Below are positions 10,145 to 22,131 of a stretch of DNA of 64,000 nucleotides, in pieces. The DNA comes from Escherichia coli O157:H7 (GTDB lineage: Bacteria; Pseudomonadota; Gammaproteobacteria; Enterobacterales; Enterobacteriaceae): NCBI RefSeq assembly GCF_013167455.1, contig NZ_CP038328.1, one strand, 5' to 3'. A model generated the notes under the pieces. It made no database searches and had not been told where the DNA came from. It saw nothing but the letters and a program-made list of their open reading frames with translations. A program made the position numbers and the translations under genes. Position 1 is the first letter of the stretch; each line of letters begins with the position of its first letter.

Positions 10145-11640
10145 TATGCAGACTCCTCTGAATACTGAAGACGGAACTGATTAACCACGGCAAAGACACG
10201 CAGCTGGTTAACATAGTCAGGCGGGAACAGCGTGTTCAGGCGGTTCGGATCGCTGGCATCACGCTCCACAACCAGGTACTGCTTAAACAGTTCGTAGTTT
10301 TCCACGATCCCCGCACGCTCAAGCTGACGGTAGGTTGCCAGCAGTTCCCCTTTGATCACCGCCGGGGTGACAATCGCCTGACCGGGACCAAAGCGGGTAC
10401 CGTCACTGGCAAGCTTGTGACGCCCGTACTTACTGGTAATGACGGATTTCAGTTTGCGCAGTACATACGCGCTGGTATGCAGCGTCTCACTGTCGAGGTA
10501 ACTGTTATCCGCAACCCCGTAAGCGTTTTTCCTGTACGTGGTGACATCACGCTGAATGCGTAGTACCCCGCTTTCGACATACGCCGTTGCCACGCCATGA
10601 GACAGCAGGGTCTGTTGTTCGGTCATCGTGAACCGTTTCCCCTTCGGCGCAGGCAGCATACCCACCAGCTCACCGGTCTGCGTGGGACGTGCCGGATCGT
10701 TGCGGATAAACACCGCTGCGCGGGCGGTACGGCTTGCCGCCAGCTCGTCGGCAGGCGTCTGGGTCTCTTTTTCGTACCCCGCCAGGGTAATGTGCTGCTG
10801 GTTAAACTGGTCACCTGCGGTCACCAGTTCTGACAGCGTGCCGATCTTTGCCGTATGCACATGACCATACAGCTGACGCGCATAGCTCCAGCGACCGCTG
10901 GTATCGTTCATCTCGGTCACCAGCGTGTTAACGGAGGCCGTGTCGTTGAACGGCAGGCCGATATAATCAAACGGCTCATCCGCCATTGCAGCCACCGCGC
11001 CGGTGAGAACCGGAGCACCCGTTCCGGCGGTACCCGTCGCCACGGCAATCTGTACGCCCGCTGGCAGCACTTCGCCCCCACCAAAGCCGTAGTAATTGAG
11101 GCTGACAGGAATTTCATTCCCACAAAGCCCCTTATGACGCGCGGTCAGTGTGACCACGCCTGCCAAAGATGAAGCCGTAAACGGCAGGGTCGGAACGGCA
11201 TTGATGGCATCCTGGATACTGCTGGCAATCATCGTGACGTTATCGCCGTTAGTCACCGGTGCCTGCACGCGGGTACGTCCTACATACACATTCACCGTGC
11301 CGGTTTCGGTTGCCGCCCCGGTCACCGTCAGCGTAACTGTTGCCGCCGCACCTGTGGATTCAGGAACGGCAATCACATACAGCTCGCCAAACGGGTCAGT
11401 CTGGCGATAAGCCTCGACCATACGCGCCAGCTGACTTCCCGCACCACAAATCTGGCGTGCATAGTCTGCCGACGACATCAGTACCAGACTGTTGGCAACA
11501 ATCTCTGCACCGTTATTGGCATGACCAATCAGCAGCGATGCTCCGCTGTCCTGTGCAGTATTCGCCGCCTGGTTATCCATTTCCGCATAAAACAACGGAA
11601 CCAGCGTATTCGACGGAATGGTGTTAAAGCTTATCGTCAT
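10144..11640 (-). CDS. Contractile tail sheath protein
   Basis: 498 aa, family-level recognition. Confidence 0.9.
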   Translation of the reverse strand: MTISFNTIPSNTLVPLFYAEMDNQAANTAQDSGASLLIGHANNGAEIVANSLVLMSSADYARQICGAGSQLARMVEAYRQTDPFGELYVIAVPESTGAAATVTLTVTGAATETGTVNVYVGRTRVQAPVTNGDNVTMIASSIQDAINAVPTLPFTASSLAGVVTLTARHKGLCGNEIPVSLNYYGFGGGEVLPAGVQIAVATGTAGTGAPVLTGAVAAMADEPFDYIGLPFNDTASVNTLVTEMNDTSGRWSYARQLYGHVHTAKIGTLSELVTAGDQFNQQHITLAGYEKETQTPADELAASRTARAAVFIRNDPARPTQTGELVGMLPAPKGKRFTMTEQQTLLSHGVATAYVESGVLRIQRDVTTYRKNAYGVADNSYLDSETLHTSAYVLRKLKSVITSKYGRHKLASDGTRFGPGQAIVTPAVIKGELLATYRQLERAGIVENYELFKQYLVVERDASDPNRLNTLFPPDYVNQLRVFAVVNQFRLQYSEESA

Positions 11641-11802
11641 CGGTGTTCACCTTTTTATTCACGCGCCGGATATCACCCGCTGCTTCACGGCGCAGCCAGT
11701 AGTTGTTCTCGTCAACATTTCGCCCTTCGGCGGGCAAAAGGTCGCCGCGGGCAGGGTCAGGCACTGACCGCCCTTTAACAGGTTTGACAAACATGAGGAT
11801 CC

Positions 11803-14889: not shown

Positions 14890-15492
14890 TTACGCGTTAA
14901 GAAGGGTCAGGACGCGTTCACGCGCCATACGTTGATTAATGGCTTTCTGTAGCGCGCCGCTGTTGCGCGCCTCCTGCCATGCTTTCATGGAGCGAACAGC
15001 CGAGTCAGCCTCCTGATAGGCAGGATATGTCACAGGACTGACATCCAGCAGACGGGAAAAGCGGGTTATCTCGCGAATAACAACCCCGTCCTCATCCTGA
15101 TACCACTCCTCGCCGTCACGGGCGACACGGAAAGCAAAAGATGACTGGTTAATATCTCCACGTTGCATCGGGGCCAGCACCAGATCACGAATGGTCTGTG
15201 TCTCCGGAGCCTGGATGTCATAGCGCAATCCGCGCTCATCAACTGAAAGATTCAGCGTGCCTGCTGCACTACGCCCAAGAATAAAATTAGGATCGTGGTT
15301 AAACAGTGCGCGTACATCATCACCAAGCACATCGTCAAAAGCGCCGGGCCGGATGATTTCGCGGAATGAACCAAATATCAGCTCAGAACGACAGTCAAAC
15401 ACCGATCCATAACCGATAATGTGCGCAGGGTTATCGTCATGCCGCTCAGCACGCACCTCACCGCTGTAACAACGGATTTCACGGTCATTCAT
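14890..15492 (-). CDS. Prohead protease (HK97 family)
   Basis: Likely start MNDREIRCY... at 15492; located between portal and capsid. Confidence 0.8.
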   Translation of the reverse strand: MNDREIRCYSGEVRAERHDDNPAHIIGYGSVFDCRSELIFGSFREIIRPGAFDDVLGDDVRALFNHDPNFILGRSAAGTLNLSVDERGLRYDIQAPETQTIRDLVLAPMQRGDINQSSFAFRVARDGEEWYQDEDGVVIREITRFSRLLDVSPVTYPAYQEADSAVRSMKAWQEARNSGALQKAINQRMARERVLTLLNA

Positions 15493-16711
15493 TGGTTTTT
15501 CCCTCATCATTTTTTGGGGGCTTAAAATCTCCTGCCGGGTTAGCAGCATTCACGCTTACCAGCATCTCATCCAGCCCTTCAACCGGATTCATATCCTCGA
15601 ATGCGCGGGCTTCATTACGGCTCATCCATCCATCGGTAATAGCGAAGTGATAGAATTGCGCGCGCTCCTGCGGAGTTCCGCGTAAAAGCCCCGTCAGATT
15701 GAACCTAACGTAATACCCGGCGGCTAACTCAGCGCGGGTAAACAAGCGACGGTTAAGCTCCTGCTCCCAGTTCGTTACCCACGGCATCATCGTGTAGCGG
15801 ACAAACTGAATCGCCTGCGCAGAAATATTGGAGAAGGTGGCTTTTTCGAGGTCATTAATCATGTGCGCAGGAATATTGAAAATACCGGCAATCATTGAAC
15901 GGTTCAGTTTCATCATGTCAATGATCTGAGCGTCAACTGGCGACACAGTCAGTGCCTTGTAATCCAGATCGGCTGGCAGCAGCATGGTTTTGTTTTCCTG
16001 GCTGCGTAACGCCTGCGATGCCTTCTGCCACTGATCTTTAAGCCAGCCCCAGCTGTCCTTATTGAGTCCGCTTTTAACGGATACTATCCCCGCCGGACGG
16101 GCATTACCGCTGAAGAAGCTTTCTGTGTATTTCTGACCGCTCATCCCCATGCCTATTGTTTCGGCATGTTGCATAATCGGACTCAGCCCCATCTTCTGAT
16201 TATTACCCAGCGCACGGATGTGGATCATATCGTCGGGGCTGATCGCAAACGCCCCATATTCGTTGTACAAACCGTAGGTATATCGGCCACCAGTATTCAT
16301 CAGCGTCGTTTCCCACGGCATACAGCAATCCAGGGATATGACTTCACCGCGACGATTACGTTTCACCCAGGTATACCCATTCCCCCAGCCAAGGATGTGA
16401 CGTTGCTTCAGTTCGCGCCATTTGTAACTGGTTTGCCAGGTATTGGGCTCATCATGAACCAGATAAAACGCCGGATGATCGCGTGCGGGCTCAACCTTCC
16501 CATTGTGCCTGCGCATAACATGCAACGGCATCTGGGCAAGGCTGGAAGACAGGACATAGATACAGGAATACACCGCAGCCAGTTTCATCGCAGTTTCAGG
16601 ACTGACATAAACGTCTGTCCGGAACAGCCCATCAGTATCAACGGCATCCCCGGTTATCGGGGTGGAAGGATTCTCCAGTGATTTACTTCTGAACAGAGCA
16701 TCAAGCAGCAC
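15485..16711 (-). CDS. Portal protein
   Basis: 408 aa, family-level recognition; GTG start. Confidence 0.85.
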   Translation of the reverse strand: MLLDALFRSKSLENPSTPITGDAVDTDGLFRTDVYVSPETAMKLAAVYSCIYVLSSSLAQMPLHVMRRHNGKVEPARDHPAFYLVHDEPNTWQTSYKWRELKQRHILGWGNGYTWVKRNRRGEVISLDCCMPWETTLMNTGGRYTYGLYNEYGAFAISPDDMIHIRALGNNQKMGLSPIMQHAETIGMGMSGQKYTESFFSGNARPAGIVSVKSGLNKDSWGWLKDQWQKASQALRSQENKTMLLPADLDYKALTVSPVDAQIIDMMKLNRSMIAGIFNIPAHMINDLEKATFSNISAQAIQFVRYTMMPWVTNWEQELNRRLFTRAELAAGYYVRFNLTGLLRGTPQERAQFYHFAITDGWMSRNEARAFEDMNPVEGLDEMLVSVNAANPAGDFKPPKNDEGKTNE

Positions 16712-16862
16712 GCGTCCCCCTTCTGGCCATAGCCAGTGCGCCCACCAGCAGTAAACCGCCGGACAGCATCAGAGCCGGAGCCATACCAAACTGCAGGTAA
16801 AACCCGCACGTAAGCAGGCCAAAACCAGCCAGCCCGATAACATCAGCAATTAGTGATTTCAT
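16701..16862 (-). CDS. Small hydrophobic protein (53 aa), hypothetical
   Basis: ATG overlaps the terminase stop in an ATGA arrangement; [53 protein letters not shown]; not in the ORF track (under 60 aa). Confidence 0.3.
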
Positions 16863-18592
16863 AGAATTAAGAGAGCATCGTCCGGATCAAGAGATGAGAG
16901 GAAATCGTCGGGTTCTTTGAGCATTGCCCGACCGATCGCCATAATCAGCGCAACCGCACCATCGATTTTGTTTTCCGCCTGCTCCTTGACAGGCTTCACC
17001 ACATCATCGTTACCCGGAATGGTTTTGCCGACCACGTTGCCGATACACCAGGTCATGATGGGATTGCCGTCATGATGAAAGCGCCCCGATTCAATCGCCG
17101 CTTCCAGCTCTTTCATCGGATCGGACATGTTGGTGTAGTTCTGAATGATGGTGATGGGGTTCAGGTCTTCATCAGCAAGGTCATGCGACAGCCCGGTCGC
17201 CCCGAAGGGGTCGATGGGTGACTCACTGACCGGGCTGATTTTGTTCGCCGCTTTGGCCTCCTCGAGGATGTACCGATAATCCACCTCCGCACCAGCGGTA
17301 ACAGTCAGAACGCCCATTTCCACCCATTTCTGAAAGCGTTCGGCTGTCCGGCGATCTTCATTTTTCTCGACGCTGTACACCGTGTCATACGGTACCCAGA
17401 AACGCGGGGCCACACTGTAGTAATGCGTTTTACCGTCAATCTCGCGGGTATAAAGTCGCGCCATGCTGTTCATATCCAGCTTACGCGCCAGGTCAAAGGC
17501 CAGAATGCACGGCTGCCCCTCGAACTGCTCAAGGGTCAGTGATTTATCCTCGCAGCTCTGCCAGCTCACCAGGTTGAAATACGCCGAACGCGCCGACACC
17601 CAGATATTGAGGTGTTTTGTTTTAAAGACGTTTGCCAGACGGGCGTTATTTTTCGCACGCTGCTGCTGACTTAACAAAAATTCGCGATAAACCGACACGC
17701 CAATATTTGGATTGGCTTTTTCCAGCACCTGCGGGTCGATCCAGTCGTCACCTTCATCAACGGTATAGATGATCCCGAACAGTTCATCGTTGGGTACCGA
17801 ACCGTTGAGCATCTCGATAACTTCCCGCCGCTTGTCGTAGCACGGCCCCTCAATGTTGTACCCGGCGGTGGTGATGGCCCACATCAGTGGCTGACGTCGC
17901 GCCCCCATCCCGGTAAGCATCGTGGTATAAAGCGCATCGGTGGCGTGCTCGTGATATTCATCCACCACCGCACAGTGGGGTGATGAACCATCACCAGGGT
18001 TACCGATCAGCGGTTCAAACCGCGCACCATCCTCCGGACGGTTCATGTTTGAGGCGTTAACCTCAATCCCGAACGCTTCCGTCAGCATGGGTGTGCGTTT
18101 ACACATCAGTCGTGCCGGACGAAAGACTTCCCATGCCTGTTTCTCCGTCGTGGCACCGGAATACACTTCCGCGCCGAACTCGTTATCACAGGCAAAACAA
18201 TACAGGGCGACACCGGCAGAGATTGCCGATTTGCCGTTCTTACGGGGGATTTCGGTATACACCTCCCGGAAGCGGCGCAGCCGGGAGCCTTTATTGACCC
18301 AGCCAAACGCGCAGCAGATCACAAAGAGCTGCCACGGCTCCAGCGTGATGGGCATCCGTTTGAATGCCCACTCACCCTTGGTGTGCGGCAACAGCTGAAT
18401 AAATTTCGCGGCCCGTTCAGCCAGGTCCTTGTCGAAGCGGTAACGAAACGACTTACTTTTTTCCGCCATCAGGTCATCAAGATGGCGCTGGCAGGCCTGA
18501 ATCACAAACTGGCAGGCCACAATCTTTCCGCGCACGACATCACGGGCATACTGATTTGCAGCATTTACGTTGGGGTAAGATTTCCGGCTCAT
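16859..18592 (-). CDS. Terminase large subunit
   Basis: 577 aa, family-level recognition. Confidence 0.9.
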
Positions 18593-19092
18593 GATTCGAT
18601 AATTTTCAGAAACGGGTTAGTGGCTTTCTTCTGCCCCGCCAGGCCAATCAGACGCTGGCGGCTGCTGGGGTCGAGTCCGAGCATTGCCCCCGTACTGCTC
18701 ATCTCGGACTCCTGTTCTTTTTTGGCGGTCAGCTCCGGATTTTTGACCATGCCGCCCATTGCACCGGTGATGGTGTTGCCCTGTCTGGCAATATTTTTCA
18801 CGGCACGTCGCCAGAACTCATAGGCCACGCACCACCGCTCAAGCACCGCGAGGTCAGTCACGCACAGCAGGCCCTGACCGCAGAGTTCTTTGGTTGTCAG
18901 TTGCCACATGATCGTGGCGAGAGGGAGATCTTCTTCAGCGAACCACTCCGGTGGCTCAACACCTTTGATGGGCGTAAAAACAGGTTCATCTTTGTTCAGG
19001 GCTCGCTTGCCGGGGTTTCCGGCCAGCGCCTTGCGCGCCGTTGGCTTGGGGCGACGCCCGGAACGCCCCGCCGTTCCAGCCATATGCGGCAC
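18589..19092 (-). CDS. Terminase small subunit (P27-like)
   Basis: 167 aa basic N-terminus, directly upstream of the large subunit. Confidence 0.75.
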
Positions 19093-19209
19093 TCCTGGTT
19101 AAATTTCATTTTTCGCGGGTATAAAAAAACGATGGGGCGGGCAGTCCGGAAGACGTCAGGTCACAGGGATTTGACCCGCCCCTCCCCTCTGGCAGTGGGA
19201 ACTGGTTCT
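19092..19209. other. Candidate cos region between HNH endonuclease and terminase small subunit
   Basis: GC-rich 117-bp gap containing ggggcggg ... cccgcccc inverted repeat; HNH-TerS-TerL arrangement is typical of HK97-type cos packaging. Confidence 0.3.
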
Positions 19210-19658
19210 TACTTCAGCCGTTCACGGGCCGTCTTCGCCTTATGACACGGCCAGCACAGGCTCTGCAGATTGCTGTCGGCATCAGTGCCGCCATGCGCTT
19301 TAGGGATGATGTGGTCAACGGTTTTCGCCTCGCGCACCACACCGGCACGCAAACACAACTGACACAGGCCTTTGTCACGCTTTAGTACACGCCCCCGGAT
19401 AACATCCCATTTCGAACCATAACCGCGCTGGTGTCGGGACTGGCCTGGCTTGTATTGCTTCCAGCCCTCGCTTTTGTGGCTTTCGCAATAACCTGACGGG
19501 TCAGTCGTGGTATGGCGGCAGCCGCGAACTCGGCAGGCTTTTGGGGTTCGTGGTGGCATATGTACTCCAATGAAGAAGCTACCGACATAGCCTCCTCCAT
19601 TCGTCGTGAAACTATTTTCATCTACCCAGTAATGAATTCTTTGAAGAGTTGTAATCAA
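19209..19658 (-). CDS. HNH endonuclease (packaging-associated)
   Basis: 149 aa with Cys-rich zinc motifs and DHIIPKAHGG...N...C HNH signature. Confidence 0.85.
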   Translation of the reverse strand: MITTLQRIHYWVDENSFTTNGGGYVGSFFIGVHMPPRTPKACRVRGCRHTTTDPSGYCESHKSEGWKQYKPGQSRHQRGYGSKWDVIRGRVLKRDKGLCQLCLRAGVVREAKTVDHIIPKAHGGTDADSNLQSLCWPCHKAKTARERLK

Positions 19659-20084: not shown

Positions 20085-20378
20085 ATGAAAAAAATGTTAT
20101 TTTCTGCCGCTCTGGCAATGCTTATTACAGGATGTGCTCAACAGACGTTTACTGTTGGAAACAAACCGACAGCAGTAACACCAAAGGAAACCATCACCCA
20201 TCATTTCTTCGTTTCGGGAATTGGACAGGAGAAAACTGTTGATGCAGCCAAAATTTGTGGCGGCGCAGAAAATGTGGTTAAAACAGAAACCCAGCAAACA
20301 TTCGTAAATGGATTGCTCGGTTTTATTACTTTAGGCATTTATACTCCGCTGGAAGCGCGGGTGTATTGCTCACAATAA
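20085..20378 (+). CDS. bor: Bor-family outer-membrane lipoprotein (serum-resistance moron)
   Basis: MKKMLFSAALAMLITGCAQQTFTV... lipobox and near-identity to lambda Bor; opposite strand to the lysis genes. Confidence 0.85.
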   Translation: MKKMLFSAALAMLITGCAQQTFTVGNKPTAVTPKETITHHFFVSGIGQEKTVDAAKICGGAENVVKTETQQTFVNGLLGFITLGIYTPLEARVYCSQ

Positions 20379-21344: not shown

Positions 21345-21680
21345 TTACTCCTTAGAGCCACCAAATTTGTTACCGATTACTCGCATTGCAGCCCCACGAA
21401 TAGCATCGACACCGATCAGCCCCACCCCACCACCAATGGCAACAGAAAGTGATTTAGGCCATCCGACATACTCAAGAGCGGATGCAAAGGTCAGCGTCAG
21501 AGCGCCACATAGCAAAATCTCGAGCGTTTTTCGCTTCCAGCCACCACCACCGCCAAAATAGGCGATGCGCAAACCAGCCATAACGATCGACATAATCACT
21601 GCACCCAGCGGTGTGTCTCCACGCCACCAGCTCTGAAACAACTCCAGCCAGTCCGGCCAGGTATTTGGGTTATGAGGCAT
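21345..21680 (-). CDS. Holin (putative)
   Basis: ORF 21345..21776; likely start MPHNPNTW... at 21680 after a GAGGTG Shine-Dalgarno; hydrophobic helices and Gly-rich segments; immediately upstream of the endolysin. Confidence 0.55.
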   Translation of the reverse strand: MPHNPNTWPDWLELFQSWWRGDTPLGAVIMSIVMAGLRIAYFGGGGGWKRKTLEILLCGALTLTFASALEYVGWPKSLSVAIGGGVGLIGVDAIRGAAMRVIGNKFGGSKE

Positions 21681-21816: not shown

Positions 21817-22131
21817 TTAAACACCTAACGCCCGACGCCCCAGCGCCATTGCTGCTTTTATTGTGGAACCGAATCCCATAAAGAAATCAGCAACCAGATC
21901 ACCAGGTCGACTACTGGCATTGATTATTTGCCTGAGCATATCCGCCGGTTTCTCGCACGGATGTTTACCCGGGTAGAACTGAACGGGCTTATGCGTCCTG
22001 ACATCGGTATAAGGCACGGAGACTGATACGGAGAAATAGCGCCGGTGAGATTTAAACTCATCCAGCAATTCAGAAGATTTGCAATTCAGTGAATCATGAG
22101 ATACCACCAACTGGTGGTAGGATTGTCTCAA
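21817..22131 (-). pseudogene. Remnant of a beta-class N6/N4 DNA methyltransferase (C-terminal part only)
   Basis: 104 aa ORF with ..FYPGKHPCEKPADMLRQIINASSRPGDLVADFFMGFGSTIKAAMALGRRALGV*, matching the HPxxKP and DPFxGSGTT-type AdoMet motifs, but lacking the upstream DPPY catalytic region; AT-rich foreign DNA begins right at its 5' end. Confidence 0.6.

Follow-up and report, generated by a model that had tools for sequence, protein, structure and literature searches.

The minus strand of a 64,000-nucleotide stretch of Escherichia coli O157:H7 DNA (contig NZ_CP038328.1 of assembly GCF_013167455.1; this whole stretch is referred to as the window) carries, between the genes for the terminase large subunit (TerL) and the portal protein of an SfV-like prophage, a 53-codon open reading frame (ORF) that is almost certainly a real, translationally coupled gene for a membrane protein. 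RefSeq, UniProt and PHROGs already list the gene, as an uncharacterised member of a protein family. What is added here is a link to a second family that includes YmfR and Sb3, an association with the portal module, a patchy distribution among related phages, and a portal Shine-Dalgarno (SD) sequence that is dual-coded within the gene. Exactly this ORF is WP_000838374.1 in RefSeq/PGAP, where it is named "hypothetical protein", and A0A0H0HIM7 in UniProt, and the identical protein is found on at least 1000 contigs, always labelled hypothetical or uncharacterised; many E. coli O157:H7 genomes have it annotated at the corresponding place. The initial annotation, made from the letters of the window without database searches, placed the ORF correctly at 16701-16862 with 53 codons, and the strand is minus. 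Its description of the ORF as unannotated is true only of the ORF track from which it worked and of the SfV reference record; it is false for RefSeq/PGAP, and the gene is also present in PHROG 7105.

ORFs of about 53 codons number in the dozens in 7 kb of the window, so that size alone does not place this one beyond chance; it stands above chance because of its conservation and the selection acting on it. Conservation of the frame in related phages, which the initial annotation had named as the way to check the ORF, was found, with a length of 52-53 codons and the overlaps with both neighbours recurring. The order of TerL, a 4-nucleotide (nt) overlap, 52-53 codons and an overlap with the portal gene is also seen in Edwardsiella phage EPP-1, Klebsiella phage vB_VIPKPNMC05, the E. 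coli siphophages 733R5 and Evi, and Salmonella phage F1055. Ralstonia phage YO028_2, whose DNA is GC-rich, keeps both the ORF and its overlap with the portal gene; its start codon is a GTG that has GTGA in common with the TerL stop codon, or else an ATG located 2 nt beyond this stop. Distant metagenomic relatives show the layout again, and the ORF was intact in all of the close loci retrieved (88/88). A tblastn search against phage genomes aligned residues 1-25 only, the low-complexity filter having masked helix 2, and was used solely to locate loci.

The ratio of nonsynonymous to synonymous substitution rates (dN/dS) was computed on codons 2-48, so that the stretches shared with TerL and the portal gene were excluded. 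It was 0.09-0.23 in the ORF's own frame (pairs with dS of 0.4-0.7), and approximately 0.7-1.5 and 2-7 in the other two frames. When 1.84 billion representative proteins were searched with a profile, 184 clusters (50% identity) were returned at E <= 1e-3, almost all of 45-60 amino acids (aa), with the common pattern M-K-x-L-x-x-D-x-x-G-x-x-G-...-G-V-Y-L-x-F-G-...-A-L-x-x-x-G. An untranslated chance ORF, to which the abundance of similar-sized ORFs in the window and the lack of an SD sequence could point, is effectively refuted by these data and retains a negligible probability: the frame, length and overlaps are kept across distant phages, dN/dS is well below 1 in the ORF's own frame only, and the profile search reached 184 clusters.

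The small gene starts with the ATG at 16862-16860 and ends with the TGA at 16703-16701. The TerL gene ends with ...ATT CTA TGA and the small ORF begins with ATG AAA, so that ATGA is common to both; this arrangement, proposed in the initial annotation, was confirmed by the sequence at bases 16862-16859. At the other end, the portal GTG at 16711 gives an 11-nt overlap with the end of the small gene, in agreement with the earlier estimate of about 10 bp. The features of the locus are as follows.

16701..16862, minus strand: 53-codon gene for a predicted two-pass membrane hairpin protein (ORF, RefSeq, PHROG 7105, purifying selection)
16859..16862, minus strand: ATGA overlap, in which the small-gene ATG and the TerL stop codon TGA share TG (sequence)
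16859..18592, minus strand: gene for TerL, upstream of the small gene (ORF, RefSeq)
15485..16711, minus strand: portal gene of the PF04860 type with a GTG start, downstream partner of the small gene (ORF, RefSeq)
16716..16722, minus strand: portal SD sequence AAGGGGG, 4 nt 5' of the portal GTG (sequence)
16794..16853, minus strand: predicted helix 1, codons 4-23, with the conserved D7, G13 and G20 (AlphaFold2 helix 2-25, column conservation)
16782..16793, minus strand: hairpin turn QFGM, codons 24-27, uncharged, with the 97% conserved G26, predicted to be periplasmic (AlphaFold2 break at residue 26)
16725..16781, minus strand: predicted helix 2, codons 28-46, with the 98% conserved G35 (AlphaFold2, column conservation)
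16862..16937, minus strand: codons of the TerL C-terminal tail, 3' of a mosaic junction and exchanged together with the small gene and portal gene (DNA homology, TerL comparison)

No SD sequence was found 5' of the small-gene ATG (..CTCTTAATTCT ATG), and the 25 nt upstream of the gene (..GATGCTCTCTTAATTCT) hold no GGAGG-like motif. A start that overlaps the upstream stop codon and has no SD sequence of its own is the arrangement of a translationally coupled gene, and 12 relatives in which TerL is adjacent show this 4-nt overlap of stop and start codons. The AUGA overlap requires the second codon to begin with A, and 89% of the family members have a residue 2 for which such a codon exists; the sole member with Ala-2, P0105, is one of the two members that have no TerL gene upstream. 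Because an SD sequence is absent and the AUGA overlap is present, translation most likely proceeds by termination-reinitiation, in which ribosomes terminating at the TerL stop codon would restart on the small gene. The protein would then be made late, at or below the level of TerL. Promoter-like and terminator-like signals near the small gene were at or near chance in number, comprising one weak minus-strand promoter-like site 500 nt upstream, inside the TerL gene, and one weak terminator-like site inside the ORF. No compositional break was found, as the GC content is 56.2% for the small gene, 54.4% for TerL and 51.1% for the portal gene. An Rfam scan of 15000-19500 on both strands returned no RNA family and therefore gave no sign of RNA-based conservation.

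The portal SD sequence is built from the small-gene codons AGA-AGG-GGG, which encode R47-R48-G49, and it lies inside the last small-gene codons in every relative inspected, including those of the YmfR type, in which GGAGG encodes the terminal GGG stretch. The C-terminal tail is therefore dual-coded. This embedding, together with the overlap of the ORF with both neighbours, is what could be expected if only translation of the ORF mattered, for ribosome delivery from TerL to the portal gene or for opening of the portal ribosome-binding site, and the peptide itself had no job. Such a coupling spacer is very improbable, since purifying selection acts at the amino-acid level and near-invariant glycines persist across phages of gamma- and beta-proteobacteria despite saturated synonymous change, a very divergent second family also keeps a hydrophobic hairpin, TerL and the portal gene are coupled directly, with no spacer, in HK97-type modules, and the portal gene has a strong SD sequence of its own.

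A programmed frameshift that fuses the small protein to the portal protein was also considered, because the portal gene is read in the +1 frame and the stretch AGA-AGG-GGG resembles an SD sequence and contains rare codons. It was rejected as the main explanation because relatives have, at the same position, normally spaced portal SD sequences of varied sequence. One database product, P0040 (131 aa), does run from the hairpin into the portal N-terminus without a break (...LLLFLRWWPQGGNMLLDTLFRSEPLENPG...). A +1 shift at the SD-like AGA-AGG-G would yield a protein of this type, but an indel or an assembly error is the simplest explanation.

The two-helix, membrane-like peptide proposed in the initial annotation is supported by structure prediction. 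AlphaFold2 run on the family alignment predicts helices at residues 2-25 and 27-47 with a mean predicted local distance difference test score (pLDDT) of 89. Among 145 family sequences, column conservation is 97% for G13, G20 and the turn residue G26, 98% for G35 and 82% for D7, and the window protein has all five of these residues. The loop carries 0.28 K+R per sequence in the same alignment, and the C-terminus is basic, with 2.2 K+R and 0.5 D+E. According to the positive-inside rule, positively charged segments of membrane proteins tend to stay in the cytoplasm; applied to the uncharged loop and the basic C-terminus, this rule leads to the prediction that both termini are cytoplasmic and joined by a very short periplasmic turn. 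Approximately six N-terminal and seven C-terminal residues are predicted to lie outside the bilayer, and the residues of the C-terminal tail are poorly conserved (33% for R47 and 41% for R48).

In database comparisons, the peptide gave a full-length match to PHROG 7105 (E 9.2e-22, 77.6 bits, residues 1-52 against positions 1-52 of the 52-position profile). This family, from which the small gene shows no difference, is the one to which it belongs, and its function is listed as unknown. The direct hidden Markov model match to PHROG 502 ("membrane protein") was weak (E 1e-4, 22.7 bits). Pfam and PADLOC scans of the peptide returned no matches, and the sole match in NCBIfam was a sub-threshold LPXTG anchor (E 3.7). 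A Foldseek search with the AlphaFold2 hairpin against the PDB gave nothing at E <= 0.001, a 53-aa hairpin not being discriminating. In the reference record of SfV (NC_003444), the small gene (2289-2450) is not annotated and the portal gene (2392-3666) is begun at a GTG at 2392. This start lies 48 nt 5' of the SD-preceded GTG, and the 16 extra N-terminal residues, implausible as a protein start, are a +1-frame reading of the helix-2 DNA. The SfV portal start was thus probably mis-called and the small gene missed, which would be an annotation error.

A second family of small proteins is found in the same slot. SfII_03 of Shigella phage SfII, Sb3 of Salmonella phage ST64B and YmfR of the e14 element of E. 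coli K-12 (b1150, annotated as IPR020297 domain-containing) belong to PHROG 502. Like the small gene, they encode two-helix hydrophobic proteins, of 60 aa, in the order TerL, small gene, portal gene, with the portal SD sequence in the last codons. They differ from it in having their own SD sequence (GAGG), in a spacing of 11 nt from the TerL stop codon in place of the ATGA overlap, in lacking the conserved D7, in a longer polar C-terminal tail, and in a portal partner that is only 27% identical. The pairwise identity between the two types of small protein is only about 26-29%. Nevertheless, profile-profile comparison of the two families (145 and 98 sequences) gave a probability of 93%, an E value of 3.5e-7 and a score of 32.1, in register over both helices. 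The controls scored 10.1 +/- 2.2 with a maximum of 16 (60 column-shuffled profiles) and 12.8 (reversed profile). Members of the small-gene family also cross-match phrog_502 at E values of 1e-4 to 1e-7. These comparisons support the view that the two families are distant homologues; the support is for homology and not for membership of the small gene in PHROG 502.

The association with the portal gene is retained over large distances. An overlap with a PF04860 portal gene directly 3' of the small gene occurs in six annotated phages and in Ralstonia. In eight distant metagenomic contexts, the next gene encodes a PF04860 portal in seven of the eight, which are all of those in which it could be identified. 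The upstream gene encodes TerL in six, a PF09682 holin in L091 and an unknown 79-aa ORF in L101. The L091 member (1188-1346) lies 13 nt after the holin gene, and the L101 member (535-687) is preceded by a T-rich stretch and lies 185 nt after the unknown ORF; neither has TerL upstream. Both overlap the PF04860 portal gene by 4 nt and have no obvious SD sequence.

Within the enterobacterial phages, the small gene moves together with its downstream neighbour. The window TerL is 97% identical to that of SfII over residues 1-566, after which the C-terminal tail diverges. At the DNA level, homology to SfI, SfII, SfIV and ST64B (91-98% identity in TerL) ends at window position 16937, past which the TerL tail and the small membrane gene of these phages are different ones and the portal is only 27% identical. 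A mosaic junction is therefore placed inside the 3' end of the TerL gene. The block that is exchanged comprises the portal gene, the small gene and the tail of TerL, and not the TerL body. Klebsiella and Evi-type phages follow this pattern too, as DNA identity is 53-61% in the TerL 3' region, 65-68% in the small gene and 73-78% in the portal gene. A related observation concerns the metagenomic sequence L014 (IMGVR_UViG_3300028995_000017, approximately 3160-3300), a deletion variant of the same prophage with TerL and the small gene 100% identical to those of the window. Soon after the small gene, this sequence jumps to the tail sheath gene, with loss of the portal, protease, capsid and connector genes.

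The distribution of the small gene among related head modules is patchy. In HK97, TerL abuts the portal gene with no small gene between them. Among 80 viral contigs with portals 41-47% identical to that of the carrier L094, none (0/80) carried a family member in front of the portal gene, or any two-helix ORF there that was convincing; the end of TerL abuts the portal gene in many of these contigs. As a control, the same pipeline found the small gene in 15/15 known carriers and not in HK97. The portals of the carriers L091 and L101 are 42% identical to that of L094, as close as those of the non-carriers, from which the patchiness follows, and carrier portals are only 27-36% identical. The small gene is therefore accessory, and HK97-type assembly in general can do without it.

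Based on the predicted hairpin, the positions under conservation and the layout of the operon, a possible role for the small protein was proposed. As a late phage gene of an SfV-like prophage, the small gene would be translated by ribosomes finishing TerL, its amount being tied to that of TerL. The protein would be inserted into the inner membrane so that both termini remain on the cytoplasmic side. There, it may work within the membrane by helix-helix packing, either by self-association along the glycine faces of the helices or by binding a host membrane protein. It could serve as an accessory late factor in lysis timing or membrane state, or in the exclusion of incoming DNA while heads are being filled. 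Its fixed place before the portal gene would reflect shared expression and linkage and not a physical complex. Action within the membrane is the most likely of the readings considered because nearly all of the conserved positions lie in the bilayer and the tails consist of six or seven poorly conserved residues; as an assignment of function, an accessory late factor acting inside the membrane is put forward tentatively, at somewhat less than even probability.

Several points weigh against this assignment. Membrane insertion and topology are predictions, and no family of holins, defence proteins or membrane proteins in Pfam, NCBIfam or PADLOC matches the peptide. A literature search for a small membrane protein between terminase and portal, for YmfR and for ST64B Sb3 found no functional study in the library searched, including for YmfR itself, and a preprint on the enterobacterial microproteome does not mention terminase, portal or prophage. 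Furthermore, strict adjacency to the portal gene over deep divergence exceeds simple linkage and favours a portal-related role, and this adjacency persists in the two loci (L091 and L101) that have no TerL upstream.

The last two points bear on the possibility that the membrane hairpin is a tether or assembly helper that holds or nucleates the portal ring or the portal-terminase vertex. In all contexts examined, among them the two without TerL upstream, the small gene lies directly 5' of a PF04860 portal gene with which it overlaps; it forms one exchange block with the portal gene and the TerL C-terminal tail; and the distantly homologous YmfR/Sb3 family occupies the same slot beside a portal that is only 27% identical. 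A precedent may be seen in phage T4, in which prohead assembly starts on a membrane-bound portal and needs gp40, the viral chaperone gp40 and the membrane serving the portal initiator gp20 (PMC9958956). As in the proposed role, a phage factor joins portal assembly to the inner membrane in that system (PMC9958956); in contrast to T4, HK97-type heads assemble without such a factor, as HK97 does not have the gene. Since HK97 and all 80 of the sampled related portal loci have no small gene, the portal family has no general need for it. The cytoplasmic part of the protein amounts to approximately six N-terminal and seven C-terminal residues, of which the C-terminal ones are poorly conserved and partly set by the portal SD sequence, so that little surface is available for specific contact with the portal. 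The N-termini of carrier portals are likewise not distinctive, as the alignment of the surveyed non-carrier portals with the L094 portal begins at residue 2. A portal tether is therefore regarded as unlikely, though it comes next after the accessory membrane factor, which is favoured over it.

In a more specific and slightly more doubtful version of the tether, the hairpin and its YmfR/Sb3 relatives would oligomerise in the inner membrane via their glycine faces and form a dock there, at which the dodecameric portal or the portal-terminase vertex is nucleated or retained. In a rarer variant of the docking idea, a +1 shift at AGA-AGG-G would fuse the hairpin to the portal N-terminus (compare P0040). 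If docking occurred, head assembly in many proteobacterial phages with HK97-like heads would begin at the membrane, as it does in T4. For the window alone, the small gene matters little, and the wider family pattern is the usable lead: tiny proteins, predicted to cross the membrane twice, are under purifying selection, always directly 5' of the portal gene, and swapped with the portal gene and the TerL tail, and a relative, YmfR, is present in E. coli K-12 itself. The pattern may bear on how the single portal vertex is specified in HK97-like heads, and on whether assembly or packaging touches the membrane outside T4.

Another possibility is that the small gene is a moron expressed from the repressed prophage, for example for superinfection exclusion at the inner membrane like gp15 of HK97. 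The resemblance to gp15 lies in a small inner-membrane protein encoded in the late structural operon of a temperate coliphage (PMC3594210). A patchy distribution among related head modules would fit a moron, and PHROGs places the related phrog_502 under "moron, auxiliary metabolic gene and host takeover". The gp15 gene is an independent transcription unit in the tail operon, with its own promoter and terminator and a deviant GC content, and its product is related to YebO (PMC3594210). In contrast, the small gene shows none of these signals: promoter-like and terminator-like sites are not beyond chance, it has no SD sequence of its own, and its GC content (56%) is near that of TerL (54%) and the portal gene (51%). 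PADLOC gave no match. Moreover, its start is locked onto the TerL stop codon, and expression should therefore follow the late operon. A moron is accordingly given a low probability, well below that of the tether.

The small protein may also be compared with holins. Class II holins and pinholins, such as S21 of phage 21, have two transmembrane domains with both termini in the cytoplasm. The small protein is similar to them in its size, two predicted helices, glycine-rich first helix and basic C-terminus, and by prediction it shows the two transmembrane helices, the cytoplasmic termini and the charged C-terminus of this class. It differs in being shorter than known holins, in matching no holin family in Pfam or NCBIfam, and in its position away from the endolysin gene. 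A lysis cassette with a lambda-family holin, an endolysin and Rz lies approximately 4 kb upstream, and because these genes are present elsewhere in the prophage, the small protein is not the primary holin. The slot in the head operon also recalls gpW of phage lambda, a 68-aa protein whose gene lies between A (TerL) and B (portal). In contrast to the hydrophobic small protein, gpW is a soluble head-completion protein.

The prophage is integrated beside a tRNA-Thr gene. Its gene order is integrase ... lambda-family holin, GH24 endolysin, Rz, iss, HNH, P27-type terminase small subunit (TerS), TerL, the small gene, HK97-family portal, S78 protease, major capsid protein and a Mu-like contractile tail. 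Over positions 1-46754, the window matches E. coli O157:H7 FRIK944 at 99.9% identity, in reversed orientation; the two differ by about 20 nt of indels, and features were placed on the window by BLAST. The baseplate assembly gene of the window (5077-6156, minus strand) is an intact ORF of 1080 nt, and the FRIK944 copy, with a 16-nt length difference, is annotated as frameshifted. The prophage in the window may therefore be less decayed than the FRIK944 copy.

The iss gene (20085-20378, plus strand), encoding the bor-like increased serum survival lipoprotein, lies on the opposite strand between the lysis cassette (holin at 21345-21680, endolysin and Rz) and the HNH-TerS-TerL genes, a position typical of morons and unlike that of the small gene. 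Another very small late gene, encoding a 56-aa DUF2635 protein (11624-11794, minus strand), is situated between the tail terminator and tail sheath genes, overlaps the sheath start by 17 nt and is present in RefSeq. Just upstream of the holin gene, at 21817-22131 (minus strand), is the remnant of an N-terminally truncated DNA methyltransferase gene. Outside the prophage, truncated rtcB and prfH fragments lie beside pepD at 42663-43386 (minus strand). The window starts inside a pinE-type invertase gene (1-231), beside oppositely oriented tail-fibre assembly genes (1108-1710), and this part is probably an invertible tail-fibre segment that sets the host range of the prophage.

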